Shown one piece after another: positions 12,679-57,841 of a stretch of DNA of 64,000 nucleotides. The position numbers were made by a program, and so were the translations under genes. Each line of letters starts with the position of its first letter. Position 1 is the stretch's first letter. Origin of the DNA: Dehalococcoidia bacterium (GTDB lineage: Bacteria; Chloroflexota; Dehalococcoidia; GIF9; UBA5629); contig DAOTVU010000029.1 of the NCBI GenBank assembly GCA_034436215.1, positions 25,007-89,006 of the forward strand. Reading direction: 5' to 3'. Under the pieces are notes generated by a model. It saw nothing but the letters and a program-made list of their open reading frames with translations. It made no database searches and was not told the DNA's origin.

Positions 12679-12754
12679 TATTTTTTGCTGTCTATTTTGA
12701 TATGAAAATTGAATAGGGTTTCTATTATAATTGTCGGTCAGTAATAAATTCAAA

Positions 12755-31210: not shown

Positions 31211-31299
<89 letters not shown>

Positions 31300-31313
31300 A
31301 GAAAATTGTTAAA

Positions 31314-31399
31314 TGGCGGAGAGGGTGGGATTCGAACCCACGAGGCTCTCGCCCACCGCTTTTCGAGAGCGGCGCCATAAACCACTCGGCCACCTCTCC
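31314..31399 (-). tRNA. tRNA-Ser (anticodon CGA)
   Basis: Hand-folded cloverleaf. Acceptor GGAGAGG, anticodon stem CCGCT/AGCGG and loop CTCGAAA. Long variable arm and encoded CCA. Its 3' 29 nt are identical to those of the neighbouring tRNA-Ser. Confidence 0.88.
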
Positions 31400-34810: not shown

Positions 34811-34863
34811 AAGCAATCTGTTGTATTTCCGGAGAGCCAGTTAAATTTATCGAAAGCGATTTT

Positions 34864-34935
<72 letters not shown>

Positions 34936-34980
34936 TATCCTATTTTTAAATATTAGTTGCTGTTCATAGTCTATTATAAT

Positions 34981-35865
34981 ATGAATGAAATTAATACAAT
35001 TGAAATCAGGTGGCATGGCAGAGGAGGTCAGGGTGCAGTTACCTCTGCCGAGCTAACGGCTCTTGCCGCTATCCATGAGAATAAATATGCTCAAGCTTTC
35101 CCCAGTTTTGGTCCCGAAAGACGTGGAGCACCGGTTTTGGCATTTAACAGAATATCCACTGACAGGCCAATACGTATAAGATCCAGTGTCTTACAACCTG
35201 ATATTGTAGTTGTACTTGATCCTGGTCTGGTGACTTTAATAAATGTTGTTGACGGACTAAAACCCGGCGGTGTACTGATAGTGAACAGTAACAAGAGTGT
35301 CGAAGAACTTAAAACCGAGTTCACTGGCAATTGGAAGCTGGCTGTTGTAGATGCTAGCTCAATAGCACGTAAATTACTCGGGGTAAATATAGTTAACACG
35401 ACTATGCTGGGGGCACTTGTCAGAGCTACAGATGTGGTAAATCTGGAGTCGCTTAAAGTGCCGATTGAAGAACGATTTGGAGCGCGTGGTGGAGCTAATT
35501 ATAACGCGTGTAAAATAGCCTATGATAATACTGTTATTGATAAAATCACGCCGCAGGGTACCAAAAAAAATAAAGTATTCCCGGTGGAAAAGTTGGCTAA
35601 ATGGAATGAGTTGCCTGTTGGATGCGTAGTTACCGATGTCGGTAATACCAAGCAATTCAGTACCGGGGACTGGAAATCACAGCATCCCGAATGGGATGAC
35701 AGAAAATGCATTAAATGCGGTATCTGTTATATCTTCTGCCCTGAAGGCTGCATAAAACAGCAGGATAATGGATATTTCAGGGCCAATATGTTTTACTGTA
35801 AAGGTTGTGGCATATGTGCCCATGAATGCTGGACCCGGGCCATTACAATGGTCGAGGAAGCTTAG
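34981..35865 (+). CDS. pyruvate:ferredoxin oxidoreductase gamma-delta fusion subunit
   Basis: Gamma-type N-terminus IRWHGRGGQGAVTSAE. The C-terminal delta-type domain has two ferredoxin-type cluster motifs, CIKCGICYIFCP and CKGCGICAHEC. I use ATG 34981 rather than the track start at 34957. Confidence 0.88.
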   Translation: MNEINTIEIRWHGRGGQGAVTSAELTALAAIHENKYAQAFPSFGPERRGAPVLAFNRISTDRPIRIRSSVLQPDIVVVLDPGLVTLINVVDGLKPGGVLIVNSNKSVEELKTEFTGNWKLAVVDASSIARKLLGVNIVNTTMLGALVRATDVVNLESLKVPIEERFGARGGANYNACKIAYDNTVIDKITPQGTKKNKVFPVEKLAKWNELPVGCVVTDVGNTKQFSTGDWKSQHPEWDDRKCIKCGICYIFCPEGCIKQQDNGYFRANMFYCKGCGICAHECWTRAITMVEEA

Positions 35866-35867
35866 AA

Positions 35868-37043
35868 ATGACTGAGAAGCGTATAGGTATTGAATCTTCA
35901 CTGGCTGTTGCTGAAGCTGTTAAGCTGGCGAACGTTGATGTTATTGCTGCATATCCTATTACCCCGCAAACGCATATAGTAGAGGGTTTAGCAGAGATGG
36001 TAGCTAATGGCCATCTGGATGCCGAATATATACCGGTTGAGTCTGAACATTCCGCTATGTCTGCCTGTCTGGGCGCTTCGGCCGTGGGTGCCAGAACCTT
36101 CACTGCGACCGCAAGCCAGGGATTAATTCTCATGCATGAGGTATTGATGGTAGCAGCATCACTTAGATTGCCTGTCGTCATGGCAGTTGCTAATCGGGCT
36201 TTATCAGGGCCATTGAATATCTGGGGAGACCATTCAGATGCTATGATTACTCGAGACGCTGGCTGGATTCAGATCTTCGTTGAAAATGGTCAGCAGGCTT
36301 TCGATATGATTCTCTGTGCCTATCGTATCGCCGAGCATAAGGACGTTTTATTGCCCGCTCTCATTAATATAGATGGATTTCATGTAACTCACGTGATAGA
36401 ACCCGTACATATTCTTGATCAAAAGACTGTTGATGAATTTATACCGCCTTATGTATACCCCAATCCGTTAGATCCGGATAAACCTGTAACTATGGGTTGC
36501 TTTGCAATGCCAAATCTGTACATGGAAACGAGAAAATCGCTGGACAATGCACTAAGACAATCCAAAAAAATAATTATTGAGACATGGAATAAATTTTCTG
36601 AAATTACCGGACGACACTATTATCCGGTGGAAAAATATAAGTCTGAAAATACAGATACAATATTGATCACAATGGGAAGTTACAGCGAAAATGCGATGCT
36701 TGCTATCGATGAGCTGCAGGATGAGGGTAAAAGTGTGGGATTAGTTCGATTGCGATTATGGCGCCCGTTTCCATCAGAAGAATTGTTTGAAGCTGTGAAA
36801 TCGGCTGAAAACATTATAGTTTTGGATAGAGCTATTTCCCTGGGTGGACCGGGGCCAGTATGTTCTGAGATTAAATCTGCTATGTATACACGGAATAAAA
36901 AGCCGAATATTATCAGTGTTATTGGTGGCCTCGGAGGAAGGGATATTTCACCGGAAGATTTTAAATCAATTATTGATATCGGACTGGAAAAGATTAAGGT
37001 AGGTAAAACTGAGCAAATGATCATGTTTGGAGTGCGGGAATAG
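35868..37043 (+). CDS. porA: pyruvate:ferredoxin oxidoreductase alpha subunit
   Basis: ATG 35868 lies 2 nt after the upstream TAG. N-terminus GIESSLAVAEAVKLANVDVIAAYPITPQT is typical of POR/VOR alpha subunits. Confidence 0.88.
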   Translation: MTEKRIGIESSLAVAEAVKLANVDVIAAYPITPQTHIVEGLAEMVANGHLDAEYIPVESEHSAMSACLGASAVGARTFTATASQGLILMHEVLMVAASLRLPVVMAVANRALSGPLNIWGDHSDAMITRDAGWIQIFVENGQQAFDMILCAYRIAEHKDVLLPALINIDGFHVTHVIEPVHILDQKTVDEFIPPYVYPNPLDPDKPVTMGCFAMPNLYMETRKSLDNALRQSKKIIIETWNKFSEITGRHYYPVEKYKSENTDTILITMGSYSENAMLAIDELQDEGKSVGLVRLRLWRPFPSEELFEAVKSAENIIVLDRAISLGGPGPVCSEIKSAMYTRNKKPNIISVIGGLGGRDISPEDFKSIIDIGLEKIKVGKTEQMIMFGVRE

Positions 37044-37975
37044 TGGAAACGCTGAGCATTTATGTACCCAGATTAGTAACCGGCAGCGAATATATCGCTT
37101 CCGGCCACCGTGCTTGTTCAGGCTGTGGGGAAGTACTGGCAGTGCGCTATGTATGTAAAGCTCTGGGAAGAAATACAATTATATCCAATGCTACTGGTTG
37201 TATGGAAATAATATCTTCGCCGCTGCCGCAATCTGCCTGGGAAGTTCCCTGGATACACACGCTTTTTGAAAATGCAGCGGCTGTAGCATCTGGTATTGAG
37301 TCTGGAATTAAAGCCTTAAAGCGCAAGCACGGCTATCAGAAAGAGGTAAAAGTGGTAGCAATGGGTGGTGATGGGGGTACAGCTGATATTGGTTTGCAGG
37401 CCTTATCAGGTGCGCTTGAAAGATGGCATGATTTTATTTATGTATGTTTTGATAACGAGGCATACATGAACACGGGTATCCAGCGTTCAAGCGAGACTCC
37501 TTTTGGAGCATCAACAACAACGGCACCTTCCGGTAAGTTAAGTATAGGTCAGCATACATGGAAGAAGAATATGGCTGCTATAGCTGCGGCCCATAATATA
37601 CCCTATGTAGCGACTTCTTGCTCGAGTTATCCTTTTGATATTATGCAGAAAATCGAAAAGGCAAAGAGAGTTAAGGGTCCTTCATATATACACATTCTAT
37701 CTGTATGCCCGACTGGCTGGCGATGCCCTTCAAATTTGAGTGTTAAAGTTGGCAGGTTAGCTGTAGAAACAGGCTTTTTCCCTTTGTATGAAATAGAAAA
37801 CGGGCAATATAAGCTGAGTATTGAATATCCAAAATTGAGGCCTGTTGAAGATTACTTAATGGCACAGGGAAGATTTCGCCATCTAACTAAGGAAAATATC
37901 GCCGATATTCAGGATAGAGTTAATCAAGAATATGCAAAACTAAAAAAGCTTTCATCCGGTTCGACAAAAAAATGA
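37043..37975 (+). CDS. porB: pyruvate:ferredoxin oxidoreductase beta subunit (TPP-binding)
   Basis: GTG 37043 overlaps the porA TAG. Motifs GHRACSGCGE (cluster-binding) and GGDGGTADIG...NEAYMNTG (TPP motif). Confidence 0.88.
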   Translation: METLSIYVPRLVTGSEYIASGHRACSGCGEVLAVRYVCKALGRNTIISNATGCMEIISSPLPQSAWEVPWIHTLFENAAAVASGIESGIKALKRKHGYQKEVKVVAMGGDGGTADIGLQALSGALERWHDFIYVCFDNEAYMNTGIQRSSETPFGASTTTAPSGKLSIGQHTWKKNMAAIAAAHNIPYVATSCSSYPFDIMQKIEKAKRVKGPSYIHILSVCPTGWRCPSNLSVKVGRLAVETGFFPLYEIENGQYKLSIEYPKLRPVEDYLMAQGRFRHLTKENIADIQDRVNQEYAKLKKLSSGSTKK

Positions 37976-38421
37976 ATGATAAAATTTCACAGATAATTAA
38001 AAAATACAATAAAGATAAAAGCCAGCTTGTATCAATTCTGCAGGATCTACAGGCGGAGTACAATTATTTACCCCGTAAAGAACTTGAGAAATTAAGCAAA
38101 AAACTCGACATTCCGCTCAGCCAAATATATAGTATGGCAACGTTCTTTAAAGCATTCAGCCTTAAAGAACGCGGCAAACATATTATTAATGTATGTTTGG
38201 GAACTGCCTGTCATGTTAGGGGCGCGGATTTAATACTAGAATCGTTAGAAAGACAGTTGCAGATTAAACGGGGTGAAACCACGGCAGACCGGAAGTTCAC
38301 ACTCGAATCGGTTAATTGTATGGGATGCTGTGCTACAGGTCCGGTTGTAAAAATAGATGATGAATACTTCGGACATATGACAAATGATAAAGTAGAGCCA
38401 ATGCTTAAAAATATTCAATGA
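37972..38421 (+). CDS. NuoE/HydC-like thioredoxin-fold [2Fe-2S] subunit
   Basis: Cluster ligand motifs CLGTACHVRG and CMGCCATGP. Its ATG overlaps the porB stop (ATGA). Confidence 0.85.
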   Translation: MNDKISQIIKKYNKDKSQLVSILQDLQAEYNYLPRKELEKLSKKLDIPLSQIYSMATFFKAFSLKERGKHIINVCLGTACHVRGADLILESLERQLQIKRGETTADRKFTLESVNCMGCCATGPVVKIDDEYFGHMTNDKVEPMLKNIQ

Positions 38422-38436
38422 TGTTGAATTTGTAAA

Positions 38437-40296
38437 ATGCCGAGAAAAATTAGATCACCCGAAGAATTAAAAAAGCTACAAATTGAGCTTGGTAGAAAAG
38501 CAAATAATGGCAAGGTGAAAATCTCTGTTTGTAATGGTACCGCCTGCCGTCCTTATGGGAGCAACCCCGTTGTGCAGGCATTTAAATCGGAAATAGAAAA
38601 AAGAGGGATATTTGATAAGGTTGATTTTAGAATTACCGGCTGCCATGGCTTTTGCGAGAGGGGCCCGGTAGCGGTTATTGAACCGGGTAATATTTTTTAC
38701 CAGAAGATTCGAACGGAAGATGTACCGGAGATAATAGATAAAACTGTGCTGAACAATCAGGTTCTGGACAGGTTACTGTTTAAGGATCCTGAATATAAAG
38801 GAGCTATTGAAAAATTATCCGAGGTTGGTTTTTACAAACATCAGAATCGTATACTTCTAGGTAACAATATCAAAATCGATCCGACTAATATAGAAGATTA
38901 TATAGCTATTGGTGGATATTCTGCCTTGGCTAAGGCTTTATTTGACCTGAGCCCCGAGCAAATTATCGATATGGTAAAACAATCGGGCCTTAGAGGAAGA
39001 GGGGGTGCCGGTTTTCCCACCGGCGCGAAATGGGAATCCTGCAAAAAAGCGCCTGGCGATATTAAATATGTTATAGTCAATGCGGATGAAGGTGATCCAG
39101 GAGCATATGCCAATGAAGGTTTATTGACCGGGAATCCGCACTGTGTACTTGAAGGGTTGATTATCGGAGCCTATGCAATAGGTTCACATCAAGGATATAT
39201 TTATGTCCGCAATGAATATCCGCTAGCTTTGAAACATATTACGGTAGCCATAGATGAAGCCAGGAAAATCGGTCTTTTAGGTGATAATATACTCGGTTCC
39301 GGATTTAATTTTAATGTTCGAATTAACCGCGGTGGTGGGGCATTTGTCTGTGGAGAATCGACAGCTTTAATGGCTTCGCTTGAGGGTAAACCCGGTGAAC
39401 CACGGGCTAAATATATACACACCGTTGAACGTGGATTATGGGATAGGCCCAGTGATTTGAACAACGTAGAAACATGGGCAAATATTCCCCTCATTATTAA
39501 TAATGGACCTGAATGGTTTGCCTCCATAGGTACAAAAGGCAATACGGGGACAAAGATATTCTCTCTGACAGGAAAGGTAAATAATACAGGATTGGTTGAA
39601 GTTCCACTCGGGATGAAGTTACGTGACATAATATTTAATATCGGCGGCGGCATAAGAAATAACAAAAAATTTAAAGCTGTTCAGACCGGTGGTCCCTCAG
39701 GCGGTTGCATACCTGAAAGACTTTTGGACTTACCGGTTAATTTTGATGAATTAACGAAAGCCGGTTCTATGATGGGATCGGGTGGTATGATTGTAATGGA
39801 TGAGGACAACTGCATGGTTGATGTTGCCCGTTACTTTTTGACCTTTCTGGAAGAAGAATCATGTGGTAAATGCGTTCCCTGTCGCGAGGGGATCAGAAGA
39901 ATGCGGCAGATTTTAAATGATATTTGTGAGGGCAATGGCCAGGAAAGTGATATAGATTTGCTTAAAGAACTGTCAAATCATCTAAAGGACAGCTCTTTAT
40001 GCGCCCTGGGCAGTTCTGCTCCTAACCCTGTTTTGACAACTATCGAGTATTTCCTCGATGAATATAAAGCGCATATTATAGATAAGAAATGTCCGGCAGG
40101 AGTATGTAAACAGTTAATTCGCTTTTTTATAATCGATGAAAAATGCCCCGGGTGCGGCTTATGTGTTAAAACCTGTCCAACGGGTGCCATCAAGTTTATG
40201 GGGAAAAAGAAACCTGTTGTTCTTGACCAGTCTAAATGCATTAAATGCAGAACTTGTTACGATATCTGTAAAATGGGAGCTGTAGGCATTGAGTGA
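38437..40296 (+). CDS. NuoF/HydB-like NAD(H)- and FMN-binding subunit with extra Fe-S domains
   Basis: GRGGAGFPTGAKW and ADEGDPGAY (FMN/NADH motifs), and ESCGKCVPCREG (N3-type cluster). It has an N-terminal thioredoxin-like 2Fe-2S domain (CNGTAC...CHGFCERGP). It also has C-terminal CPGCGLCVKTCP and CIKCRTCYDICK. Confidence 0.87.
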   Translation: MPRKIRSPEELKKLQIELGRKANNGKVKISVCNGTACRPYGSNPVVQAFKSEIEKRGIFDKVDFRITGCHGFCERGPVAVIEPGNIFYQKIRTEDVPEIIDKTVLNNQVLDRLLFKDPEYKGAIEKLSEVGFYKHQNRILLGNNIKIDPTNIEDYIAIGGYSALAKALFDLSPEQIIDMVKQSGLRGRGGAGFPTGAKWESCKKAPGDIKYVIVNADEGDPGAYANEGLLTGNPHCVLEGLIIGAYAIGSHQGYIYVRNEYPLALKHITVAIDEARKIGLLGDNILGSGFNFNVRINRGGGAFVCGESTALMASLEGKPGEPRAKYIHTVERGLWDRPSDLNNVETWANIPLIINNGPEWFASIGTKGNTGTKIFSLTGKVNNTGLVEVPLGMKLRDIIFNIGGGIRNNKKFKAVQTGGPSGGCIPERLLDLPVNFDELTKAGSMMGSGGMIVMDEDNCMVDVARYFLTFLEEESCGKCVPCREGIRRMRQILNDICEGNGQESDIDLLKELSNHLKDSSLCALGSSAPNPVLTTIEYFLDEYKAHIIDKKCPAGVCKQLIRFFIIDEKCPGCGLCVKTCPTGAIKFMGKKKPVVLDQSKCIKCRTCYDICKMGAVGIE

Positions 40297-41017
40297 AATC
40301 GTCAACATAATCATAAATAATGTTAGCTTTCAGGTTGAGAAGGGTATAACAATACTTCAGGCAGCACGAAAATTGGGAATTAAGATACCCACTCTTTGTG
40401 ACAATGAAGCGATTGAACCATATGGAGCCTGCCGATTATGCATTGTGGAATTAGAAAAAGGATCGCGAAATAGGATAGTGACTTCCTGTTTATATCCGGT
40501 TGAAGAAGGTTTAATAATCAAAACCGATACTGAGCGTGTTATACGAAACCGTAAAATGCTTCTGAGCTTATTATTGACACGTTGTTCAGAAAACAGGGTA
40601 ATAAAAGATCTGGCGGCCGAATACAGCATTGAAAGGCCACCTTTTAGAGAAAAATACTGGGAGAAAAATGACTGTATTGTTTGTGGTTTGTGTGTGCGTG
40701 CATGCGAGCAGATAGTCGGAGTAAGCGCTATAAGTCTGGTTAATCGTGGAATATCCAAGGAACCGGCTCCTCCCTTTCTCGAAAAAGCGAAGGCCTGCAT
40801 AGGTTGCGGTTCATGTTATTATGTCTGTCCTACCAACGCCATAAAAATGGAAGATAGAAACGGTATACGTCGTATATATAACTGGAAAGTAGAGTTTAAA
40901 CTTAAGAGATGTTCCAAGTGCGGCATCCCCTGGGCTCCCGAGGCTCAGCTTAATTACATAATTAAAAAATGGGATTTGCCGGATAACATTTTTGATCTGT
41001 GTCCCAACTGCAGATAA
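40289..41017 (+). CDS. Fe-S protein resembling only the N-terminal part of NuoG/HydA (2Fe-2S plus two ferredoxin-type clusters), no catalytic domain
   Basis: 2Fe-2S ferredoxin motif C-x10-C-x2-C (CDNEAIEPYGACRLC) plus a later Cys. Ferredoxin-type motifs CIVCGLCVRAC and CIGCGSCYYVCP. C-terminal CSKC...CPNC pair. TTG start lies 9 nt after GGGAG and overlaps the upstream stop by 8 nt. Confidence 0.75.
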   Translation: MSEIVNIIINNVSFQVEKGITILQAARKLGIKIPTLCDNEAIEPYGACRLCIVELEKGSRNRIVTSCLYPVEEGLIIKTDTERVIRNRKMLLSLLLTRCSENRVIKDLAAEYSIERPPFREKYWEKNDCIVCGLCVRACEQIVGVSAISLVNRGISKEPAPPFLEKAKACIGCGSCYYVCPTNAIKMEDRNGIRRIYNWKVEFKLKRCSKCGIPWAPEAQLNYIIKKWDLPDNIFDLCPNCR

Positions 41018-41104
41018 AATCGCTAATAAGCGCTCTTTCATTATTAACACCTGTTGTTATTTTTAATTTTTACTATACTGCTTGACAATTTATAATTAAA
41101 TGTT

Positions 41105-41116
41105 GTACACTTGTTC
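41105..41116 (+). promoter_or_regulatory. candidate LexA operator (Cheo-box-like)
   Basis: GTACacttGTTC matches GAAC-N4-GTTC with one mismatch. It lies 33 bp upstream of the lexA ATG. Confidence 0.4.
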
Positions 41117-41148
41117 TTAATACAAATGTGCAACGTTACGGATGTTAT

Positions 41149-41775
41149 ATGAGAAAACCTGGTGTAAATCAAACACGACAGCGTATTATAGAATATATAA
41201 GAGATTTTTATGATGAACGGGGTTATGCGCCCACAGTTCGAGATATTATGAGGGGCTGCGATTTGAGTTCTACTGCTGTTGTGCAGCATCATTTGAAAGT
41301 TCTGGAAAACGAGCATCAGATAGAACGTGATTCGAAAGTATTTAGAAGCATCCAACTACCCGATAGAAAAAATACAATACGTGTACCTATCCTGGGTAAA
41401 ATTGCTGCCGGTTTGCCGATACCGGTTCTATCATCTGAATCTTGGCGCAATGACGCGACAGATACTCTCGAATTGTCCTCTGAAATTACGAAGGGGAAAG
41501 AGGTATTTGCTCTGAAAGTGAGTGGCCAGTCGATGATTGATGCTCTTATTGATGATGGTGATATAGTATTAATGGAGCAGGTTAAGGATGTAAATAATGG
41601 CGATATGGTTGCGGCGTGGTTGAAACGCGAAGAAGAAGTGACGCTAAAAAGATTTTATTATGAGGGTAGTCGCATACGTCTTCAACCTGCTAACAGCCAG
41701 ATGAAACCTATATTTACAACTTCAGACAATATAGAAATTCAGGGCAGGGTTGTTGCGGTAATAAGAACTCTATGA
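41149..41775 (+). CDS. lexA: LexA repressor
   Basis: N-terminal winged-HTH (YAPTVRDIM), Ala-Gly cleavage site (KIAAGLP), and S24 peptidase Ser (GQSM) and Lys (TLKRF). I use ATG 41149. Confidence 0.9.
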   Translation: MRKPGVNQTRQRIIEYIRDFYDERGYAPTVRDIMRGCDLSSTAVVQHHLKVLENEHQIERDSKVFRSIQLPDRKNTIRVPILGKIAAGLPIPVLSSESWRNDATDTLELSSEITKGKEVFALKVSGQSMIDALIDDGDIVLMEQVKDVNNGDMVAAWLKREEEVTLKRFYYEGSRIRLQPANSQMKPIFTTSDNIEIQGRVVAVIRTL

Positions 41776-41791
41776 GTATTTGAAAGAGTTC

Positions 41792-43237
41792 CTAAACTTT
41801 TTCCCAGTATGAGCTCAAATTTGATAGGGCTCTTATCGCCCTTAACATTGAAGGTACCACATATATTCCTGCATGCAATAATTTATCTCTGACCTGTCTT
41901 CTTGATATTTCTATCCCAATGCGATTCTGTCCGTATGCCAAATCCTCAAGTACAACGATTACCGGTTTGGTATTAGATCTTTGTTTGAATTCTATTATTG
42001 TATCCACTCTCTTATTCTGTTCGGGCACATCTTCATTCATTAATTCTTTCATCCCGTAAAAGAACATGCGGTTTACGATAATGGCATCTATGTTATCCCA
42101 TTTACAGGCGATTTCGAGCACGTTTCTTAATATGCTTGAAGGAGCGGAGGGTGCGCCTATATCAAAAGGATTCTTATTACTTGTGCCCTGCTGTGGCAAG
42201 AACTCTGAAATTTCTTTTTGAATGGAATCGGTAGCATGAGGGATCTTCATGCCGTATTTTTCACAAATGTCGCTGGCGGATACTCCTACACCACCACCAC
42301 CACCAATTATCGCCAGCTTCCTGTAATTTGCCGGCGGAATGTATTTAAAAATAGCGATAGTATCAAGCAGCTCTTCAAAATCGTGTACTTTTACGGCACC
42401 TGATTGTTTGAAAAAAGCTTCCCACACTTCTTTGTTACCTGCTATTGAACCTGTATGGCTGCTAACCGCACGTTTTCCTGTCTCTGAAAGGCCTCCTTTC
42501 CAGATTATAACCGGTTTTTTACCCAACAGGCTTCTCACAATTTTTATAAAAAGTCTTCCGTCTTTTACACCTTCCAGATACGCTCCAATAATATCGGTTT
42601 CAGAATCATATTTGAAGTACTCCATTAATGAAATCTCATCTACGTCAATTCCGTTCCCATAACTGACCACTTTACTGAAAAAGATGTTGAAAGCGTCAGA
42701 GCTCCAGATAAGATCGGTTACCCAGCCGCCACTTTGAGATATGATTCCTATATTTCCACTTTTTTTAGGGTACGTTGCTCCGGGTAACAGTGTAAGACCC
42801 CCTTTAGGTGAGTACACGCCAAAGCAATTAGGTCCTACGATTCGGATTTTTCCTTTTGCAATTTTAATTATAGCTTCCTCCAATTTACGACCAGCATCGC
42901 CTACCTCGCGGAAACCCGCTGAAAATATCTCCGCAGCAGGAATACCTTTTTCGACGCAATCAGAGATGATCTGGGGAACCGTATGAGCAGGAGCAGAGAT
43001 GATTGCCATGTCAACGGTATCAGGTATGGCCTTAACGTTGGGAAATGCTTTTAAACCGCATATTTCATTAGCAGTTGGATGCACAGGATAAATTTTTCCA
43101 TCATACCCAAATATTTGAAATACGCGTAAGAACTGGTTTCCAGCGCTGTTACTTCTTTGTGAAACACCGAAAAAAGCAATTGATCTGGGATAGAATAGCG
43201 GTTTGAATTCCTCAAGAAGATTATTTGACATTACCAT
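41792..43237 (-). CDS. ADP-forming acyl-CoA synthetase alpha-type / CoA-binding protein (stand-alone, ~480 aa)
   Basis: Motifs SIAFFGVS, IVGPNCFG, ISQSGG, His loop AVSSHTGSIAG and IIGGGGGVG. A GGAG abuts ATG 43237, so the ATG at 43231 may be the real start. Confidence 0.82.
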   Translation of the reverse strand: MVMSNNLLEEFKPLFYPRSIAFFGVSQRSNSAGNQFLRVFQIFGYDGKIYPVHPTANEICGLKAFPNVKAIPDTVDMAIISAPAHTVPQIISDCVEKGIPAAEIFSAGFREVGDAGRKLEEAIIKIAKGKIRIVGPNCFGVYSPKGGLTLLPGATYPKKSGNIGIISQSGGWVTDLIWSSDAFNIFFSKVVSYGNGIDVDEISLMEYFKYDSETDIIGAYLEGVKDGRLFIKIVRSLLGKKPVIIWKGGLSETGKRAVSSHTGSIAGNKEVWEAFFKQSGAVKVHDFEELLDTIAIFKYIPPANYRKLAIIGGGGGVGVSASDICEKYGMKIPHATDSIQKEISEFLPQQGTSNKNPFDIGAPSAPSSILRNVLEIACKWDNIDAIIVNRMFFYGMKELMNEDVPEQNKRVDTIIEFKQRSNTKPVIVVLEDLAYGQNRIGIEISRRQVRDKLLHAGIYVVPSMLRAIRALSNLSSYWEKV

Positions 43238-43378
43238 CTCCTAGATGTGCGTATAAATTGACTAAATATTATAAGATAAAGCTTGTCAAATAGATAATAA
43301 ATTGCATGATTATTGGCTTTTTCATTCTTATTTTAAATATCCGCACCAACAAACAAGAGCTGTATAGATCAAAATTGT

Positions 43379-43419
43379 GAGCCTGTTGGCTTGACAATTT
43401 GAGCCAATAGGCTCATACT
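43379..43419 (+). promoter_or_regulatory. inverted repeat overlapping a candidate promoter in the divergent intergenic region
   Basis: gagcctgttggc (43379-90) and gccaataggctc (43403-14) are 12-bp inverted arms with one mismatch. They flank TTGACA (43391-96). CATACT follows at 43414-19, after a 17-nt spacer. Confidence 0.4.
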
Positions 43420-43481
43420 TAAAATAATAGTACTAAAGTACTGGTACTTATTTGCTATTGCATATGAATGGTTCATATATA

Positions 43482-43901
43482 ATGAAACGTTTGTTGGTAT
43501 GGCTGGGGTTTATGGCATTATCCGCCATTATTTTGGTGGGAATGTCGATGGCAATACCTTCAATAATTAATGCGGACAGCTCACAATCAATTACTGCACC
43601 CTCTGACTTTATTAAATCGTATTATCAGGCCTTAACAAATCCACTAAATAAAGCCGCTTCCGAAGTTAAAGATCCTGAAATCGGGCAATTTTCCAGGAAA
43701 CTGATTAATTCATATAACCTCGAAAGTATAAGCACGACTGATCCAGATAAAGCCGAACTTTATAATCTGGTGCCCGATATTGCGGCAATACAGAAGAATG
43801 CTTTACGAACAACACTCACAGAAGCCGGGAAAACCTTAAAAGATAAAGATCTGTCCGAATTTTACCAGCGTTTTCTATCCAATAGCGGTTTAGATAAATA
43901 A
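43482..43901 (+). CDS. hypothetical small secreted protein (139 aa)
   Basis: ATG 43482. N-terminal signal peptide MKRLLVWLGFMALSAIILVGMSMA with an AxA-like cleavage context (INA-DS). I recognise no family motif. Confidence 0.6.
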   Translation: MKRLLVWLGFMALSAIILVGMSMAIPSIINADSSQSITAPSDFIKSYYQALTNPLNKAASEVKDPEIGQFSRKLINSYNLESISTTDPDKAELYNLVPDIAAIQKNALRTTLTEAGKTLKDKDLSEFYQRFLSNSGLDK

Positions 43902-44014
43902 TAATTATTATTATATCTTCTGAACTTATTATTGACATCCACTAGCCCGGCGGTTCTAATATAACTCTGTTGACCTTAATAATATCTTAGATTTATTATT
44001 TGTTTATTCTGAAA

Positions 44015-45811
44015 ATGGCCTGTCGATATTTTATTTTATCTATTATTATAATCCTGCCATTAATGATTGCGGGTTGTAATTGCAATTCAACAATCCATCA
44101 GAAACAATCAGGTATACAGTACGATTTACAGAAACACACAAGACCTATCAATACTGTTACTTACAGCGGTAACCGGCCTGCTGTCATTTACGTAATAAAT
44201 GAAATACAGGAAAATAAATTTAAGGATATTATCGATAGAATAATAAGAGTTTTTGCTGAGAGTGGTGTACCTGTAGATGTCGCTCTTCATCCATATTATA
44301 TCCTTAAAAATGAATCAGGTTACAATTTTCTTATTCCATATTCTGATTCGGGGCTCATCGATATAAGTCTGGACGGCAATGATATCAACTGGCTGGATAT
44401 TGATGCACCAAATGAAAGTGCTGCTTATAATACATTGAAAGAATTTATTGAAAATTATTCTAATTTTATCAATCAATACTTTGGCTATCGCCCAGTTTCA
44501 TGTATTTTTCCGTACGAATTATTTAATGAATATAACTATAAATTATTGCAGGAGACCGGTTTTAAAATTATCTCCTGCAAACAATCTGCTGTTTTTGTAC
44601 CATCGAGAAAGCCGTTAAATTGGGCTGGCAAAGTGGATCAAGAGGGTTTATACAGGCTCCCTATAATCAGTGCAGCAAACTATCCAGCAACTAACCCTCT
44701 TGAAATTTCAGCGACAACGACCAATAGAGATGTTAATGAAAATATTTTGAATGATATAAATATTGGTTTAAACATCATTGGCGTTGCGGTTATATCTATC
44801 GAACCGGACGATTTTGTTGACAGCGAAGGCAAAATTAATATCATAAAGATTCAACAACTTGCAGATCTTGTCAATAGAAGTAAAAATTACGGTGAAATCG
44901 TAACATTCAGCGGCTGGAGCCGTTATTCATCAAAATATATTGGTATAACTCAAAATAAATCGAGGGTACTGCCTGCATATAACGGCGGCCCTGCTGTTAT
45001 TTTCAGACTTGATGATGTGTGTAAAAACTGGTATGAGGACATCGACAAAGCTCTGATCGAAATGTTTAAAGAAAACGGAGTACCTGTGGATTGTGGAGTT
45101 ATATCAAATGCAAATGGAATCGATTCCTACGAATTACCCTGGCTGAAAAAGTATTTTGAAGAAGGAGCAGTTGGCATTAGCCTTCATGGTTTCGATTGGA
45201 CTTACTATCAATTGGATACTACAAAATCAAATCTTACTTTTGAGGAAATCAAATCTAAATTACTAAGATCTCGTGACAGTTTTCTTGCATACTATGGTGT
45301 AGAGCCAGTTGCCATTACTGTTCCAACGGATTTTTATGATAAGTCTGGGTATCAGGCAGTAGTGGAAACTGGATTTAAGATATTTTCAACGCAGGTTGCA
45401 ATCGAACCTCACCCGTCAAACGTGATGGTTGACTATGAAGGTAAAAAAACGCCTTTCGGTTTGTACAGGCTCCCAACTGCCTCTGATGTTTGTGCCTGGG
45501 ACAATATCACTCAAAGATTTACAGAACCTTTTGATATAAGCAAATTAACCAAGGTCAATAATTATTGCAATTATTACAATGCTCTTTCTACCACAATAAC
45601 CGATGACACATTTGGTTATATGCTGTGCAGCGAACTTTCTTCACTTGGTGTAGCCGTGGTGAGTCTGCATCCCACAGCTTTCGTAGATACGAGTGGTAAT
45701 CCCGATTATGCCAAATTACAAAAAATTGATGCCATTATCAAGTGGGTTAAATCATTTGCCTCAATAACAACATTCGAGCAATGGCATAATTTTTATGCAT
45801 TGACCAAGTAG
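44015..45811 (+). CDS. lipoprotein with two tandem polysaccharide-deacetylase/DUF2334-like repeats (second intact, first degenerate)
   Basis: Lipobox MIAGC. Internal duplication at about 44171-44930 and 44984-45800 with shared blocks PAVI, GVPVD, ISL-G-D, ETGFKI and LYRLP. Only repeat 2 keeps RLDDV and SLHGFDW. The family call rests on short motifs. Confidence 0.6.
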   Translation: MACRYFILSIIIILPLMIAGCNCNSTIHQKQSGIQYDLQKHTRPINTVTYSGNRPAVIYVINEIQENKFKDIIDRIIRVFAESGVPVDVALHPYYILKNESGYNFLIPYSDSGLIDISLDGNDINWLDIDAPNESAAYNTLKEFIENYSNFINQYFGYRPVSCIFPYELFNEYNYKLLQETGFKIISCKQSAVFVPSRKPLNWAGKVDQEGLYRLPIISAANYPATNPLEISATTTNRDVNENILNDINIGLNIIGVAVISIEPDDFVDSEGKINIIKIQQLADLVNRSKNYGEIVTFSGWSRYSSKYIGITQNKSRVLPAYNGGPAVIFRLDDVCKNWYEDIDKALIEMFKENGVPVDCGVISNANGIDSYELPWLKKYFEEGAVGISLHGFDWTYYQLDTTKSNLTFEEIKSKLLRSRDSFLAYYGVEPVAITVPTDFYDKSGYQAVVETGFKIFSTQVAIEPHPSNVMVDYEGKKTPFGLYRLPTASDVCAWDNITQRFTEPFDISKLTKVNNYCNYYNALSTTITDDTFGYMLCSELSSLGVAVVSLHPTAFVDTSGNPDYAKLQKIDAIIKWVKSFASITTFEQWHNFYALTK

Positions 45812-45840
45812 TATATTTCTGGACCTGAACTATACACAAG

Positions 45841-45913
45841 TCGGGGTGAGTGGATTTGAACCACCGACCTCATGGTCCCAAACCATGCGCGCTAACCGCT
45901 GCGCTACACCCCG
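45841..45913 (-). tRNA. tRNA-Pro (anticodon TGG)
   Basis: Hand-folded. Acceptor CGGGGTG/CACCCCG, anticodon stem CATGG/CCATG, loop TTTGGGA and T-loop TTCAAAT. CCA is not encoded. Confidence 0.88.
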
Positions 45914-50365: not shown

Positions 50366-51820
50366 ATGACTGCATCGGTACTTGACTATATATTTAATCC
50401 GAGATCGATAGCCATAGCCGGCGTATCTCCTGATTTAGCAAGGCCTAACATTGCACAGGCTTTTGTTAACAGTCTCAAGGACTTCGGTTATAAAGGCGAC
50501 ATTTACCCGCTGCATCCTGCTGGAGGCGAGATTTTCGGCTTAAAAGTTTATAAAAATATAAAAGATATTCCGAATAATGTGGATTATGTTGTATCGGCTA
50601 TCCCCGCCAGATATACCCCCCAGTTGATAACAGACTGTGTGGTTAAAAAAGTAAAAATTGTCCATCTATTTACCTCTGGTTATAGTGAGATAGAGGATCA
50701 TATAGGGCTTGAGCTGGAAAATGAAATTGTAAAGATTGCTCGCAGTGGTGGTGTGCGTTTAATTGGACCAAATTGCATGGGAACATATTGTCCGGCTACA
50801 GGAATGACATTTGCCGCAGAATATCCTGATCAGAAGGGATTCCCGAAGACATCCGGACAACTGGGGCTTGTTTCACAAAGCGGTGGAAACACGATATATG
50901 CAATCCGGCAATGTGCAGAAAGGGGTGTATATTTCAGTAAGGCTATAAGCTACGGAAATGCAACTGATCTAAATGAGAGCGACTATCTTGAGTATTTTGC
51001 AGATGATGATGAAACCAGATTGGTGGCAATGTACATCGAAGGGCTTAAGGAGGGACAGCGCTTCAAATATGCTGTTAAGAAAGCACTCAAGACTAAACCA
51101 GTCATAATCAACAAAGGAGGCAATACGGAAACTGGGGCTAGGACATGTACTTCACATACAAGTGCTATGGCGGGATCAGCAAAAATCTGGCGAAGTTTTA
51201 TTAAACAAACGGGTGCCATTCTTGTTGAAGGTATGGACGAGCTGGTTGATGTAATTGTTGCCTTTACAAAAATGCCGGTCCCCCATGGAAGAAATGCAGT
51301 AGTTATTGGCACCGGCGGCGGAGTAGGCGTGCAGGCAGCCGATGATATTACAAATGCCGGCCTGTTTTTGCCAATGTTAAATCCGGAAGTTCGAAAACAG
51401 CTTAATTCCATATATGGGACTGAAGCTGGCAGTATGTTTAGAAATCCCGTAGACTCGCCACCATTCGGGGGAGTAAAAAATCATATTCGTGCTATTAAAG
51501 CAATCGCGGACTCGAATGATATCGATATAATCATTCTGCATTTTGGATTCGATATATGGGCCATGGTTAGCAGAACTATTCCATTACAGCCTTTTGTTGA
51601 AACAGTATCGGAATTAGTAGATATAATTAAAAAGCCATTGGCTATTGTATTACACTATTGTACTGATCCAAAATCACGAGTCCTGGAAGATGAGGTGGCA
51701 CATAAATTTGTTAATATGGGGCTTCCTGTTTATCCGTCTATTTCACGTGCAGCAAATGCTATATCCAAATATATAACCTATCATGAATATCGTCTTAAAA
51801 ACTTGAAAGATCGAGATTAG
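50366..51820 (+). CDS. ADP-forming acyl-CoA synthetase alpha-type / CoA-binding protein (stand-alone, 484 aa)
   Basis: Motifs SIAIAGVS, LIGPNCMG, VSQSGG, His loop TCTSHTSAMAG and VIGTGGGVG. Its stop codon directly abuts the sucD stop codon on the other strand. Confidence 0.83.
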   Translation: MTASVLDYIFNPRSIAIAGVSPDLARPNIAQAFVNSLKDFGYKGDIYPLHPAGGEIFGLKVYKNIKDIPNNVDYVVSAIPARYTPQLITDCVVKKVKIVHLFTSGYSEIEDHIGLELENEIVKIARSGGVRLIGPNCMGTYCPATGMTFAAEYPDQKGFPKTSGQLGLVSQSGGNTIYAIRQCAERGVYFSKAISYGNATDLNESDYLEYFADDDETRLVAMYIEGLKEGQRFKYAVKKALKTKPVIINKGGNTETGARTCTSHTSAMAGSAKIWRSFIKQTGAILVEGMDELVDVIVAFTKMPVPHGRNAVVIGTGGGVGVQAADDITNAGLFLPMLNPEVRKQLNSIYGTEAGSMFRNPVDSPPFGGVKNHIRAIKAIADSNDIDIIILHFGFDIWAMVSRTIPLQPFVETVSELVDIIKKPLAIVLHYCTDPKSRVLEDEVAHKFVNMGLPVYPSISRAANAISKYITYHEYRLKNLKDRD

Positions 51821-52739: not shown

Positions 52740-53903
52740 TCAGTTATTTGCAGCAGATACAGCTTTAATCGCAGCATCGTAAAAATCCGTAGCATCGATA
52801 TAATTTATACCCGCTTGCATGAGCATTTGTTTACCTTCCAAAGCATTTGTACCCGCCAGCCTAATAACTACCGGAACTTTTATATCAATCTGCTTGTAGG
52901 CATCGATGATGCCACGAGCGATGATGTCTGCGCGAGCCATGCCACCAAAAATATTTATCAGAATAGACTTTACATTTGGGTCTGACATAAAGATTTTAAA
53001 TGCGTTTATCAGTATCTGTGGATTATTTACAGTTCCGATATCGAGAAAGTTAGCGGCTCTGCCTCCTGCATATTTGATCATATCAAGGGCAGCCATAGCC
53101 AGGCCAGCACCATTAACAGCGCAGCCGATATTCCCATCTAATTTGACATAATTTTTAATTCCAAGTTCTGAGGCAATTTTTTCGAACTGGTCATCTTGTT
53201 CGGGATCGTGCAAATTACGGATGCTATCGTGTCTAAATAGGGCATTGTCGTCAAAATTTAGCTTGGCATCAAGTGCGATTAGTCTCCCATCTTTTGTAAC
53301 AGCCAAGGGGTTAATCTCAGCCAGCGAGCAGTCGTTTTCCATGAATAATTTGAATAAAGCCGCAATGATAGCACCAAACTCTTTTATCAGATCTCCACTT
53401 AAACCTATCCCATAAGCCAATTTACGACCGATATACGGCTGAAAACCAACTGCAGGATCTACATATGCCATGATTATCTTTTCGGGTGAATTTTCGGCTA
53501 TATCTTCAATATCCATTCCGCCTGCTGAGCTTGTCATTATTACCGGCAAACGCTTGCTTGTATCAATGACAATACTTATATAAATTTCACCTACTATCGG
53601 TACAGCTTCTTCTATCAATACTTTTCTAACAATTGTGCCCGCAGAAGATGTCTGGTGCGTAATAAGCGTTCTATCAAGCATAGAAGTTGCGATTTTTACA
53701 GCATCGACTGGGCTGCTGGCAAATTTAATGCCTCCCGCTTTACCTCTTCCTCCAGCATAAACTTGCGCTTTAATCACAACCGGCTTGCCAATCTCTTCGG
53801 CAATTCGTCGTACGTCGTCAATTGTTTGAGCCAATCTGCCAGTAGGCGTCGGGATATTATACGAAGCCAGAATAGACTTGGCCTGATATTCGTGAATTTT
53901 CAT
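52740..53903 (-). CDS. sucC: succinate--CoA ligase beta subunit
   Basis: MKIHEYQAK N-terminus, ATP-grasp GGRGKAGGI and C-terminal NIFGGMARAD (ligase-CoA motif). Confidence 0.93.
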   Translation of the reverse strand: MKIHEYQAKSILASYNIPTPTGRLAQTIDDVRRIAEEIGKPVVIKAQVYAGGRGKAGGIKFASSPVDAVKIATSMLDRTLITHQTSSAGTIVRKVLIEEAVPIVGEIYISIVIDTSKRLPVIMTSSAGGMDIEDIAENSPEKIIMAYVDPAVGFQPYIGRKLAYGIGLSGDLIKEFGAIIAALFKLFMENDCSLAEINPLAVTKDGRLIALDAKLNFDDNALFRHDSIRNLHDPEQDDQFEKIASELGIKNYVKLDGNIGCAVNGAGLAMAALDMIKYAGGRAANFLDIGTVNNPQILINAFKIFMSDPNVKSILINIFGGMARADIIARGIIDAYKQIDIKVPVVIRLAGTNALEGKQMLMQAGINYIDATDFYDAAIKAVSAANN

Positions 53904-56131: not shown

Positions 56132-57841
56132 CTAATATTTCCTCTCTACTGGTTTCCAGAAATTGATTGCAACGGGTAAATATTCAAATTTGGGCCCAGC
56201 ATCCGAATAAAAGGCCAGTGTATGTTTTAACCAGTGAGCATCGTCACGTTCTTTGTAATCCCGCCTTGCATGAGCGCCCCTTGACTCTTTTCGTCTGAGA
56301 GCCCCTCCAACAACTATCTCCGATAAATCAAGCAGGTTCTGTATCTCGAACACATTTAATAATTCTGTATTATATATCCGACTATGATCGTTTATCTTTA
56401 CATGCAGCAGCTTTTCTTTTAACTCGTGTATTTTATCCAGCGCATCTTTAAGCCCCTGTTCATCACGAAATACACCGACTTTTTTATCCATAGTTTGGTT
56501 GAGTTCAATACGAATTACATATGCATTTTCATTCCCTTTGTTATCAATTCTTCCTTGCACTTCTGACTCAACCTCTTTAATGCTGCCAGGATCGACTTCA
56601 ATAAATGATCTGCGTTTTAAAACGTAAGTAGCAGCCTGCTGACCAGTTATTTTACCCCACACCAGACATTCGGCAGTTGAGTTTGAACCCAGTCTGTTTG
56701 CGCCATGAAGTGATACGCAGGCCGCTTCCCCGGCCGCCCAAATATTTTCCACGGGAGTTTTTCCATCGATGTCCGTGTGAATTCCACCCATTGTATAGTG
56801 AGCGGCGGGACGTACCGGTATGGGAGCGATAATAGGATCTATAAAATCAAACCGCATAGCCACTTCTCTAATTAGGGGCAGTCGCTCATTGATCTTATCA
56901 GCACCCAGGTGCCGTAAATCGAGATGGACGAAATCAAGGCCCGCTGGTTCACTAAAACCACGGCCATTCTCAATCTCGGTCATTTCGGCACGGGAAATTA
57001 TATCCCGGGGAGCAAGCTCCATTTTAGAGGCAGCGTATTTTCCCATAAACCGTTCGCCGAGATTATTATAAAGATAACCGCCTTCTCCCCTTGCCGCTTC
57101 AGTTATCAGAATGCCCGAAGGCACCAAACCCGTAGGATGGAACTGGATAAATTCAAGATCCTTAATCGGTATTCCCGCTCGATAGGCCATGGCCATTCCG
57201 TCACCGGTTGCCGTTAAAGAATAGGTGGTAAATCCGTACATCCGGCAGGCACCACCGGTAGCAATTATCAATGCCTTGCCCTGTATTACAAGAAGCTCAC
57301 CAGTCGTAAGGTCCCATCCAATAACACCACAGAAAATATCGTCTTTAATAATAATGGAGTGTATGAAGCACTCATCATAACGGGATATGCTAGTGAATTT
57401 CTGCAAAGTATCATAGAGCGTGTGCATTTCGAAAAATCCTGTTTTATCAGACGCAAAAGTCGCACGATCAAAAGAATGCCCTCCAAACGGCCGTTGATTT
57501 ATACGCCCGTCGTCTTTACGTGACCAAGGAATGCCCCAGTAGTCAAGAAGCCTGATCTCTCCGGGTATTTCGCTTACAAAACGCATGACTACGTCTTGAT
57601 CACTCAGAAAATCCGAACCACGCACCGTATCCCATGCATGGAGTTCGATACTATCACCGTTTTCCGGCTGCATTACAGCTGCCGTTCCCCCCTCAGCACA
57701 CACAGAGTGTGCTCTCATCAACTGAACTTTAGATATTATCGCAACATCAGCATCAGGGTTTTTGCGCGCAATCTCCACCGCAGCACGCAGACCTGCCAGA
57801 CCTGCACCCATAATAATGACATCGTGCTTTGTGTTTATCAT
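56132..57841 (-). CDS. sdhA: succinate dehydrogenase / fumarate reductase flavoprotein subunit
   Basis: FAD fold VIIMGAGLAGLRAA, covalent-FAD His context RAHSVCAEGG, plus HPTG and ESRGAHAR motifs. Confidence 0.93.
   Translation of the reverse strand: MINTKHDVIIMGAGLAGLRAAVEIARKNPDADVAIISKVQLMRAHSVCAEGGTAAVMQPENGDSIELHAWDTVRGSDFLSDQDVVMRFVSEIPGEIRLLDYWGIPWSRKDDGRINQRPFGGHSFDRATFASDKTGFFEMHTLYDTLQKFTSISRYDECFIHSIIIKDDIFCGVIGWDLTTGELLVIQGKALIIATGGACRMYGFTTYSLTATGDGMAMAYRAGIPIKDLEFIQFHPTGLVPSGILITEAARGEGGYLYNNLGERFMGKYAASKMELAPRDIISRAEMTEIENGRGFSEPAGLDFVHLDLRHLGADKINERLPLIREVAMRFDFIDPIIAPIPVRPAAHYTMGGIHTDIDGKTPVENIWAAGEAACVSLHGANRLGSNSTAECLVWGKITGQQAATYVLKRRSFIEVDPGSIKEVESEVQGRIDNKGNENAYVIRIELNQTMDKKVGVFRDEQGLKDALDKIHELKEKLLHVKINDHSRIYNTELLNVFEIQNLLDLSEIVVGGALRRKESRGAHARRDYKERDDAHWLKHTLAFYSDAGPKFEYLPVAINFWKPVERKY

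Follow-up and report, generated by a model that had tools for sequence, protein, structure and literature searches.

We analysed a 64,000-nucleotide (nt) stretch of genomic DNA from a Dehalococcoidia bacterium (Chloroflexota; GenBank assembly GCA_034436215.1, contig DAOTVU010000029.1, positions 25,007 to 89,006 of the forward strand), referred to below as the window. The analysis centred on a cluster of six genes, in which the subunits of a pyruvate:ferredoxin oxidoreductase (POR) are followed by three proteins related to NuoE, NuoF and NuoG. These three genes are designated bfuC, bfuB and bfuA, after the Bfu family derived from HydABC hydrogenases. The cluster and its upstream flank consist of the following features:

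34863..34936, + strand: tRNA-Arg(CCG), the conserved upstream flank (ARAGORN, Rfam)
34981-35865, + strand: porGD, fused POR gamma and delta subunits, 294 amino acids (aa), a single open reading frame (ORF)
35868-37043, + strand: porA, POR alpha subunit, after a gap of +2 nt behind porGD
37043-37975, + strand: porB, POR beta subunit, with a GTG start overlapping the porA stop codon (-1)
37972-38421, + strand: bfuC (NuoE/HydC-like), 149 aa, joined to the porB stop codon by an ATGA overlap (-4)
38437-40296, + strand: bfuB (NuoF of the HydB type), 619 aa, +15 after bfuC
40289-41017, + strand: bfuA, a stub resembling the N-terminal part of NuoG/HydA, 242 aa, TTG start, -8 relative to bfuB

All six genes lie on the + strand and span 34981-41017. 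Their junctions of +2, -1, -4, +15 and -8 nt, first noted in a sequence-only reading of the window, were reproduced when checked base by base. The locus is a real, tightly packed six-gene operon, combining POR with a HydBC-type NAD(H)/ferredoxin flavin module and containing no hydrogenase. Within the cluster, neither promoter-like matches (24 versus 22.1 +/- 4.7 in shuffled sequence) nor terminator-like matches (4 versus 6.2) exceeded the shuffled expectation, and zero matches fell on the porB/bfuC junction with its 4-nt overlap. The 3' end of tRNA-Arg(CCG) lies 44 nt from the porGD start, a spacer offering little space for a separate promoter. An Rfam scan of the 64-kb window returned tRNAs alone, with no leader or riboswitch at the operon. 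Co-transcription of tRNA-Arg(CCG) with the operon is possible.

The three por genes together encode the parts of a heteromeric POR of the PorABDG type, i.e. a beta subunit for thiamine pyrophosphate (TPP) with a [4Fe-4S] cluster, an alpha subunit, a gamma subunit and a delta domain for two [4Fe-4S] clusters. In PorGD, the gamma domain (domain III, residues ~7-184) precedes the delta 2x[4Fe-4S] ferredoxin domain (residues ~212-293). The protein matched Pfam POR and Fer4 as well as NCBIfam NF045790, and exceeded the cutoffs of both TIGR02175 (206.7 bits, cutoff 81.1) and TIGR02179 (86.2 bits, cutoff 60.05); its PDB matches comprised the gamma and delta subunits of 9bt4 and the delta fusion of an oxalate oxidoreductase (5c4i_B). 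All eight cluster cysteines of PorGD (243, 246, 249, 253, 273, 276, 279 and 283) were kept in 32/32 relatives, and the delta domain is likely the electron exit of POR. Another cysteine of the PorD domain, C257, is situated outside the canonical cluster motifs, yet it was conserved in 32/32 as well. PorA consists of the Pfam domains POR_N and PFOR_II. PorB contains TPP_enzyme_C and passes the NCBIfam model NF008819, 'pyruvate synthase subunit PorB' (425.8 bits, cutoff 405); its cysteines C25, C28, C53 and C222, the predicted ligands of the proximal [4Fe-4S] cluster, were conserved in 35/35 sequences, and the protein is predicted to bind both TPP and this cluster. A similar OFOR (2-oxoacid:ferredoxin oxidoreductase) architecture is present in the oxalate oxidoreductase of Moorella thermoacetica (5C4I), whose delta subunit provides a structural precedent for the gamma-delta fusion, and in a heteromeric POR (9BT4), where gamma and delta are separate chains. 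Both these enzymes donate their electrons to free ferredoxin, with no NAD(H) module attached, unlike the operon in the window.

Profile and PDB searches classified the three remaining proteins as the C, B and A subunits of the electron-bifurcating family. BfuC matched Pfam 2Fe-2S_thioredx (E 2e-50), and its top PDB matches were all C subunits of this family (8a6t_C, 7t2r_C, 9n5u_C and 9mqx_C, i.e. HydC, NiFe-HydC, NfnC and WorC). The four ligands of its [2Fe-2S] cluster C1 (C75, C80, C116 and C120) were conserved in 52/52 relatives. As for BfuB, it had been claimed from the sequence that the NuoF-like protein carries two extra regions typical of HydB, an N-terminal thioredoxin-like 2Fe-2S domain and a C-terminal pair of Fe-S clusters. 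Pfam and NCBIfam bore this out: a 2Fe-2S thioredoxin-like domain (residues 23-102) is followed by Complex1_51K, SLBB and NADH_4Fe-4S and then by two Fer4 domains (565-616). Near-full-length PDB matches were obtained to WorB (9mqx_B, E 2e-229) and NiFe-HydB (7t2r_B, E 4e-229), and HydB (8a6t_B, 7q4v_B) and NfnB (9bov_B, 9n5u_B) were matched over nearly the whole length (E from about 1e-218 to 1e-229 for 9mqx_B, 7t2r_B, 8a6t_B and 7q4v_B), whereas the NuoF chains of complex I covered only residues ~149-547. The closest solved relative of BfuB is WorB, a clade-45 enzyme, and the relatives belong to Chloroflexi/Dehalococcoidia; both observations speak indirectly for placing the window BfuB in clade 45 (Por sub-clade).

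In BfuB, all cofactor ligands are present. The FMN/NAD(H) core is of the NuoF type, and the ligands of the [4Fe-4S] cluster B1 (C476/479/482/522), of the N-terminal [2Fe-2S] cluster B5 (C32/37/69/73) and of the two C-terminal [4Fe-4S] clusters B3 and B4 (C570/573/576/580/601/604/607/611) were each conserved in 51-53/53 relatives. The B2 ligands were located by alignment to 7t2r_B, using the residues of NiFe-BfuB named by Schut et al. (PMC9304861); H525, C438, C531, C536 and C476 of that protein correspond to H546, C459, C552, C557 and C497 in the window. While C459, H546, C552 and C557 were conserved in 53/53, position 497 was occupied by cysteine in only 5/53. The window proteins thus have the full set of ligands for the six BfuBC clusters and for the B2 His/Cys site, and all except Cys497 are conserved in the relatives. 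According to Schut et al., clusters B2-B5 set true bifurcating enzymes apart from non-bifurcating NuoF homologues (PMC9304861). In the other relatives, position 497 is Ser or Thr in most cases or else Val, Thr being the residue of Dehalococcoides mccartyi Por-BfuB; the equivalent C476 of NiFe-BfuB is the fifth ligand of a pentacoordinate B2 [2Fe-2S] cluster, and the NiFe enzyme and the window BfuB share Cys at this fifth position. Because structures with Thr at this site contain zinc in place of the cluster, and the window protein has Cys497, it might, by analogy, hold a real B2 cluster.

The BfuA stub occupies the place where a catalytic subunit would be expected, as had been proposed, and contains Fer2_4 and two 4Fe-4S motifs only; its top NCBIfam matches were the N-termini of FeFe hydrogenase A6, HoxU and NuoG. 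The cysteines of the [2Fe-2S] cluster A1 (37/48/51/67), of the two CxxCxxCxxxC motifs for the [4Fe-4S] clusters A2 and A4 (C129/132/135/139 and C170/173/176/180) and of a C-terminal CxxC...CPxC zinc-finger motif (C208/211/238/241) were conserved in 48-52/52 relatives. An alignment gap falls exactly on HxxxCxxCxxxxxC, the His-ligated cluster motif of HydA/NuoG, so that A3 is missing; A5, the H-cluster domain and the C-terminal helix are likewise missing, and the stub ends at CPNCR, while WorA runs 13 residues further. At the place where the A3 motif is deleted there is a further cysteine, C99, conserved in 48/52 and lying outside the canonical motifs. The top PDB match of the stub was WorA (9mqx_A, 247 aa), aligned over the full length with E 1e-47. 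An AlphaFold2 model built from a 12-sequence alignment was of low quality (mean pLDDT 66, below 50 in the cluster region), and a fold search with it returned 9mqx_A first at a TM score of only about 0.5; this gives weak support, and the sequence match to 9mqx_A is much stronger. By its motif content, the stub is assigned as a WorA-type, Type 2 BfuA.

Compared with characterised systems, the three proteins make up what appears to be the electron-bifurcating core common to HydABC hydrogenases, NfnABC and WorABCSL. In the [FeFe] HydABC and [NiFe] HydABCSL enzymes (7P5H, 7Q4V, 8A6T, 7T2R), the BfuBC cofactor-binding motifs are identical to those in the window, including the B2 His/Cys site, but the window operon lacks the H-cluster domain, A3, A5 and the NiFe subunits. 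Among solved structures, WorABCSL of Acetomicrobium mobile (9MQX), an electron-bifurcating tungsten aldehyde oxidoreductase, is nearest to both BfuB and the stub. Like the stub, WorA is short and contains A1, A2, A4 and four zinc-finger cysteines (PMC12318220), and in both systems the catalytic module resides on separate subunits and handles a very low-potential donor. The partner of WorA is the tungstopterin module WorSL, recruited by a C-terminal helix that the window stub does not possess, and no homologue of the polyferredoxin WorS accompanies the window operon. Complex I NuoEFG shares with the window proteins the FMN/NADH site, the N3-type cluster, the NuoE [2Fe-2S] cluster and the N-terminal NuoG clusters; however, its NuoF is devoid of the N-terminal [2Fe-2S] and C-terminal 2x[4Fe-4S] domains found in BfuB, and NuoG is a protein of ~600-900 aa with the His-ligated cluster N5, in contrast to a stub of 242 aa encoded in a por rather than a nuo operon.

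No hydrogenase or formate dehydrogenase (FDH) catalytic domain was found in the 64-kb window, in agreement with the sequence-only reading. The 20 largest other ORFs of the window contained no hydrogenase or molybdopterin/FDH domain, and a six-frame scan for three FeFe H-cluster and two NiFe large-subunit motifs gave zero hits. The accompanying claim that POR is the only catalytic partner encoded in cis held inside the operon, but not for the window as a whole, where a second 2-oxoacid oxidoreductase resembling indolepyruvate:ferredoxin oxidoreductase (IOR) lies ~22 kb from the operon:

10852-12753, - strand: IOR-like OFOR

POR is therefore the sole catalytic partner within the operon but not the sole OFOR in the window. 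With its alpha and beta parts taken together, the IOR-like enzyme extends over 10235-12753 (-).

We further examined whether the arrangement is shared by related genomes. GTDB, represented by one genome per species, was scanned with an alignment of stub homologues, yielding 80 loci, mostly from uncultured Dehalococcoidia, and gene order was determined by tblastn with the six window proteins. Loci with BfuA at least 57% identical were considered close, and the full order was assessed where at least 5.35 kb of upstream DNA was available. In the nearest relative, Dehalococcoidia bacterium UBA6808, the six proteins were 75-87% identical in amino-acid sequence and flanking genes were shared. The order porGD-porA-porB-bfuC-bfuB-bfuA was colinear in 31/31 close Dehalococcoidia loci with enough upstream DNA, and in all 18 loci with truncated upstream DNA (18/18) the genes present formed the expected tail end of this order. 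The gamma-delta fusion, too, appeared in all 31 close relatives, each time as a single high-scoring segment pair with full-length coverage. Junctions were similarly well kept: the porGD-porA gap was +2 in 22/30 loci, the porA-porB junction -1 in 29/31, the porB-bfuC junction -4 in 20 loci and at most 3 nt in 32/35, and the bfuB-bfuA junction -8 in 25/45 and +1 in 11/45. The few outliers look like frameshifted assemblies. As both order and junctions are conserved across relatives, the por-bfu linkage is no accident of this genome; chance adjacency of por and bfu was ruled out by the 31/31 synteny, and the possibility raised at the outset, that the synteny might be unique to this genome, did not hold. 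On the upstream side, tRNA-Arg(CCG) precedes porGD on the same strand in 18/18 related loci, immediately in 17 of them and at ~1.8 kb in the remaining one (L037).

The arrangement itself is not new. Schut et al. (2022) described it under the name 'Por-Bfu', as a member of the Bfu family, derived from HydABC, that is not a hydrogenase (PMC9304861); the reading of the window represents an independent rediscovery of this proposal. In that work, Por-Bfu carries BfuB of clade 45, is found mainly in organohalide-respiring Chloroflexi including Dehalococcoides, and belongs to Type 2, with a BfuA containing A1, A2 and A4 only; in D. mccartyi 195 the cluster has a tRNA gene on either side, and its genes are expressed together (PMC9304861). 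In a 2025 paper on the WorABCSL structure, the Por-Bfu counterpart of WorA is noted to retain the zinc-finger motif but not the C-terminal recruiting helix (PMC12318220). Literature searches for D. mccartyi locus tags and for biochemical studies of Por-Bfu yielded nothing beyond these two Bfu papers. The window agrees with this description in several respects: por and bfuCBA form one cluster associated with tRNA genes, BfuA is of Type 2, the phylum is the same, and the stub has the zinc-finger motif and no C-terminal helix, as described for Por-Bfu. The locus is thus almost certainly a Por-Bfu-type cluster. Three differences were observed. The published Por-Bfu comprises seven genes (A-G) with four POR subunits, while the window has six owing to the gamma-delta fusion, which alters how the genes are laid out but leaves the cofactor content unchanged; D. 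mccartyi BfuB has Thr at the variable B2 position, where the window BfuB has Cys; and the downstream tRNA-Pro of the window cluster has been displaced by an inversion, unlike in the layout of the D. mccartyi type. We consider the fusion, the cysteine and the 4.9-kb inversion minor local variations.

More distant homologues of BfuA were found beside different partners. In metagenome-assembled genomes (MAGs) of Zixibacteria and Ignavibacteria (L052-L071), a different OFOR directly precedes bfuC-bfuB-bfuA. Its genes are arranged alpha-beta-gamma, with no delta subunit recognised in these Vor-type loci, and the 525 bits scored by the alpha subunit suffice for the VorB subfamily model of NCBIfam; in one of them (L059, 5098-10777) the OFOR/bfuC junction is again a 4-nt overlap. 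The C-terminus of BfuA differs according to the neighbour. While the Por-type protein has an invariant ending CxxC...WAPExQLxYIxxKW...CPxC[RK], the Vor-type protein mostly lacks the zinc-finger cysteines and carries a C-terminal extension of ~15-20 aa, and in the Wor type the C-terminal helix of WorA has been shown structurally to recruit WorS (PMC12318220). Three further loci (L078-L080) encode a true HydA of 572 aa, complete with H-cluster motifs and the His-ligated cluster. In a deltaproteobacterial MAG (L072, 7576-14259), bfuA is followed by an 807-aa HdrA/MvhD-like protein that contains MvhD/FlpD and by an FrhB-like protein, and in another locus (L060, 10001-13250) BfuA is fused to an HdrA-like flavoprotein, giving ~1083 aa in total. 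The co-variation of the BfuA C-terminus with its partner, together with the second OFOR-Bfu lineage, suggests that BfuA makes physical contact with its neighbour, beyond sharing its regulation; taken together, the two are the best evidence here for such docking. The passages on Por-Bfu in the two papers (PMC9304861, PMC12318220), considered apart from the supplementary tables, make no mention of a Vor-Bfu linkage. One might tentatively ask whether the coupling of an OFOR to BfuBC has arisen repeatedly in evolution as a solution of general use, in Dehalococcoidia with POR and a zinc-finger BfuA and in Zixibacteria/Ignavibacteria with a VorB-type OFOR and an extended BfuA, although we hold this to be rather doubtful. 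If both formed obligately coupled complexes, oxidation or synthesis of 2-oxoacids would be tied to the NADH/ferredoxin balance in widespread uncultured anaerobes, and the BfuA C-terminus would represent a partner-specific docking code.

To explain these observations, we propose a model in which the six proteins would form a single bifurcating complex with POR wired to BfuCBA; we give this full mechanism a probability of about 0.55. A direct wiring of POR to a HydBC-like NAD(H)/flavin module, as put forward in the sequence-only reading with either pyruvate:NAD+ activity or ferredoxin/NAD bifurcation or confurcation as the outcome, gains support from the Bfu ligands, the WorA-type stub, the 31/31 synteny and the junctions of the translational-coupling type. 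According to the model, pyruvate and CoA would be oxidised at the TPP site, and electrons would pass through the [4Fe-4S] cluster of PorB and the two clusters of the PorD domain to A4 of BfuA, on which the PorD domain would dock nearby. From A4 they would travel via A2 and A1 to the FMN/B1/B5/C1 site in BfuBC. Per two pyruvate, one NAD+ would be reduced by hydride transfer and two ferredoxins via B2/B3/B4, which would give 2 pyruvate + 2 CoA + NAD+ + 2 Fd(ox) = 2 acetyl-CoA + 2 CO2 + NADH + 2 Fd(red), with both reductions obligately coupled. The reaction would be reversible, so that pyruvate would be made from acetyl-CoA and CO2 at the expense of NADH and reduced ferredoxin. Both modes have been proposed before: Schut et al. 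list pyruvate/acetyl-CoA+CO2 (E0' about -500 mV) as the third couple in their Table 1 and consider either pyruvate synthesis from NADH and ferredoxin or coupled oxidation by analogy with Wor-Bfu (PMC9304861). Wor-Bfu uses a very low-potential donor, and neither of its acceptors is reduced without the other; by this analogy, coupling matters once substrate and product concentrations raise the effective potential of the third couple (PMC9304861). As for the direction in vivo, synthesis appears attractive in acetate-assimilating organohalide respirers. The oxidative direction might be equally plausible, because the neighbourhood in the window, with two ADP-forming acyl-CoA synthetase-like genes, IOR, aminotransferase, thiolase and malic enzyme, suggests a fermenter of organic acids and amino acids.

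Several points weigh against this model. Bifurcation is not thermodynamically required, because the -500 mV pyruvate couple can reduce NAD+ or ferredoxin alone. For the reverse reaction, a mixture of NADH and ferredoxin is a poorer driver of pyruvate synthesis than ferredoxin alone, unless pyruvate is kept very low. Docking of the Por-type stub would have to proceed without the C-terminal helix that recruits the partner subunit in WorABCSL. Pyruvate specificity of the POR is only likely: PorB passes its equivalog model, but PorA stayed slightly below the equivalog cutoff of PorA_Arch (509 against 550 bits), with VOR models next in score. Finally, the literature that we searched offered neither biochemical nor structural support for a POR-BfuABC complex, whatever the organism.

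Some of these points would also suit two separate, co-transcribed enzymes, a ferredoxin-dependent POR and a free-standing BfuABC linked through soluble ferredoxin, since a shared operon by itself shows only co-regulation. The POR has its full normal cofactor set and a delta-type ferredoxin domain for free ferredoxin, BfuB retains the C-terminal clusters that interact with ferredoxin, and the WorA-type recruiting helix is absent from the stub. Nevertheless, we consider such a separation unlikely: the third substrate enters every characterised Bfu enzyme through BfuA, and a complete A1-A2-A4 wire leading to nowhere would be odd. The overlapping porB/bfuC junction has moreover been retained in ~35 species, the C-terminal end of BfuA changes along with the catalytic module beside it, and the same linkage occurs with a second type of OFOR. 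One could also imagine that the six proteins do form one complex which is non-bifurcating, i.e. an NAD+-linked pyruvate oxidoreductase, comparable in outcome to NADH-dependent phenylglyoxylate dehydrogenase, for which ferredoxin is not obligatory. Direct reduction of NAD+ by pyruvate is thermodynamically allowed (PMC9304861, Table 1), and the weaker, below-cutoff matches of the POR subunits to NCBIfam models of phenylglyoxylate dehydrogenase subunits show that NAD-linked 2-oxoacid oxidoreductases exist. Such an enzyme seems quite improbable, however, given that B2-B5 and C1 were kept in 51-53/53 relatives while non-bifurcating homologues have lost such features, and that Wor-Bfu, the closest solved relative, is strictly coupled in spite of its low-potential donor (PMC9304861).

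Alternatively, the NuoEFG-like genes might serve another enzyme, either as NADH input of an 11-subunit complex I or as diaphorase of a hydrogenase or FDH encoded elsewhere. In support of this, genomes of the Dehalococcoidia type often encode a Nuo of 11 subunits but no nuoEFG (PMC5736913). The stub is annotated publicly as 'NuoG' or 'bidirectional hydrogenase diaphorase', and our search for hydrogenase and FDH was confined to the 64-kb window. In complex I, the His-ligated cluster N5 forms the link toward NuoI. The stub has neither this cluster (N5 of NuoG, A3) nor the whole C-terminal domain of NuoG, BfuB displays HydB-type extras absent from NuoF, linkage to por rather than nuo or hyd was invariant in 31/31 genomes, and the relatives that do serve a hydrogenase (L078-L080) carry a full HydA with H-cluster motifs. 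On these grounds we regard service to another enzyme as very unlikely. Identification of the three proteins as the N-module of complex I was rejected, as the stub contains neither the N5 motif nor the NuoG C-terminal domain and has por genes as neighbours; so was their identification as the diaphorase of a hydrogenase or FDH, as no catalytic domain is present in the window and the por linkage is invariant.

If the coupled complex were real, Por-Bfu would link the pyruvate/acetyl-CoA node directly to the NADH and ferredoxin pools. Dehalococcoidia are abundant, mostly uncultured anaerobes of the subsurface and sediments and include organohalide respirers used in bioremediation; whether they possess a synthase fed by NADH and ferredoxin or a bifurcating pyruvate oxidase would change models of their carbon and redox metabolism, and a biochemically tested Por-Bfu would give the Bfu family a low-potential third substrate. 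The window adds no new concept in this respect, and its six-gene, gamma-delta-fused form is standard across dozens of uncultured Dehalococcoidia species. What it supplies are sequences, conserved residues and a candidate docking motif, plus a pointer to the Vor-type OFOR-Bfu linkage.

Downstream of the cluster, the window departs from its relatives. In 18/18 related loci, tRNA-Pro(TGG) lies on the same strand within ~60-80 nt of the cluster, whereas in the window it is displaced to 45840-45913 (-). Four genes are located between bfuA and this tRNA:

41128-41775: LexA-like gene
41792-43237, - strand: ACD-like gene
43452-43901: ORF
44000-45811: deacetylase-like gene

Their order and orientation (41128-45811) are reversed in comparison with a related locus (L003, 10893-17135), which points to a local inversion of ~4.9 kb (41018-45913), starting right after bfuA, as the event that moved tRNA-Pro. 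On the other side of the cluster, a tRNA-Ser(GGA)/tRNA-Ser(CGA) pair (31211-31399, -) was also present upstream in 8/18 relatives checked. Both the window and some relatives have an insertion between this pair and tRNA-Arg(CCG), with genes for a P-type ATPase and a universal stress protein.

Apart from the ACD-like gene at 41792-43237 (-), metabolic-type genes occur at 50366-51820 (+), 52740-53903 (-), 56132-57841 (-), 58793-60142 (-), 60177-61718 (-) and 61754-62995 (-). The metabolic set of the window contains two ADP-forming acyl-CoA synthetase alpha-like genes, a succinyl-CoA synthetase beta-like gene, a thiolase and a malic enzyme, and two flavoproteins of the fumarate reductase/succinate dehydrogenase type and an aminotransferase are encoded as well. 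AMP-dependent ligases and binding proteins of the branched-chain amino-acid type lie farther upstream in the window.

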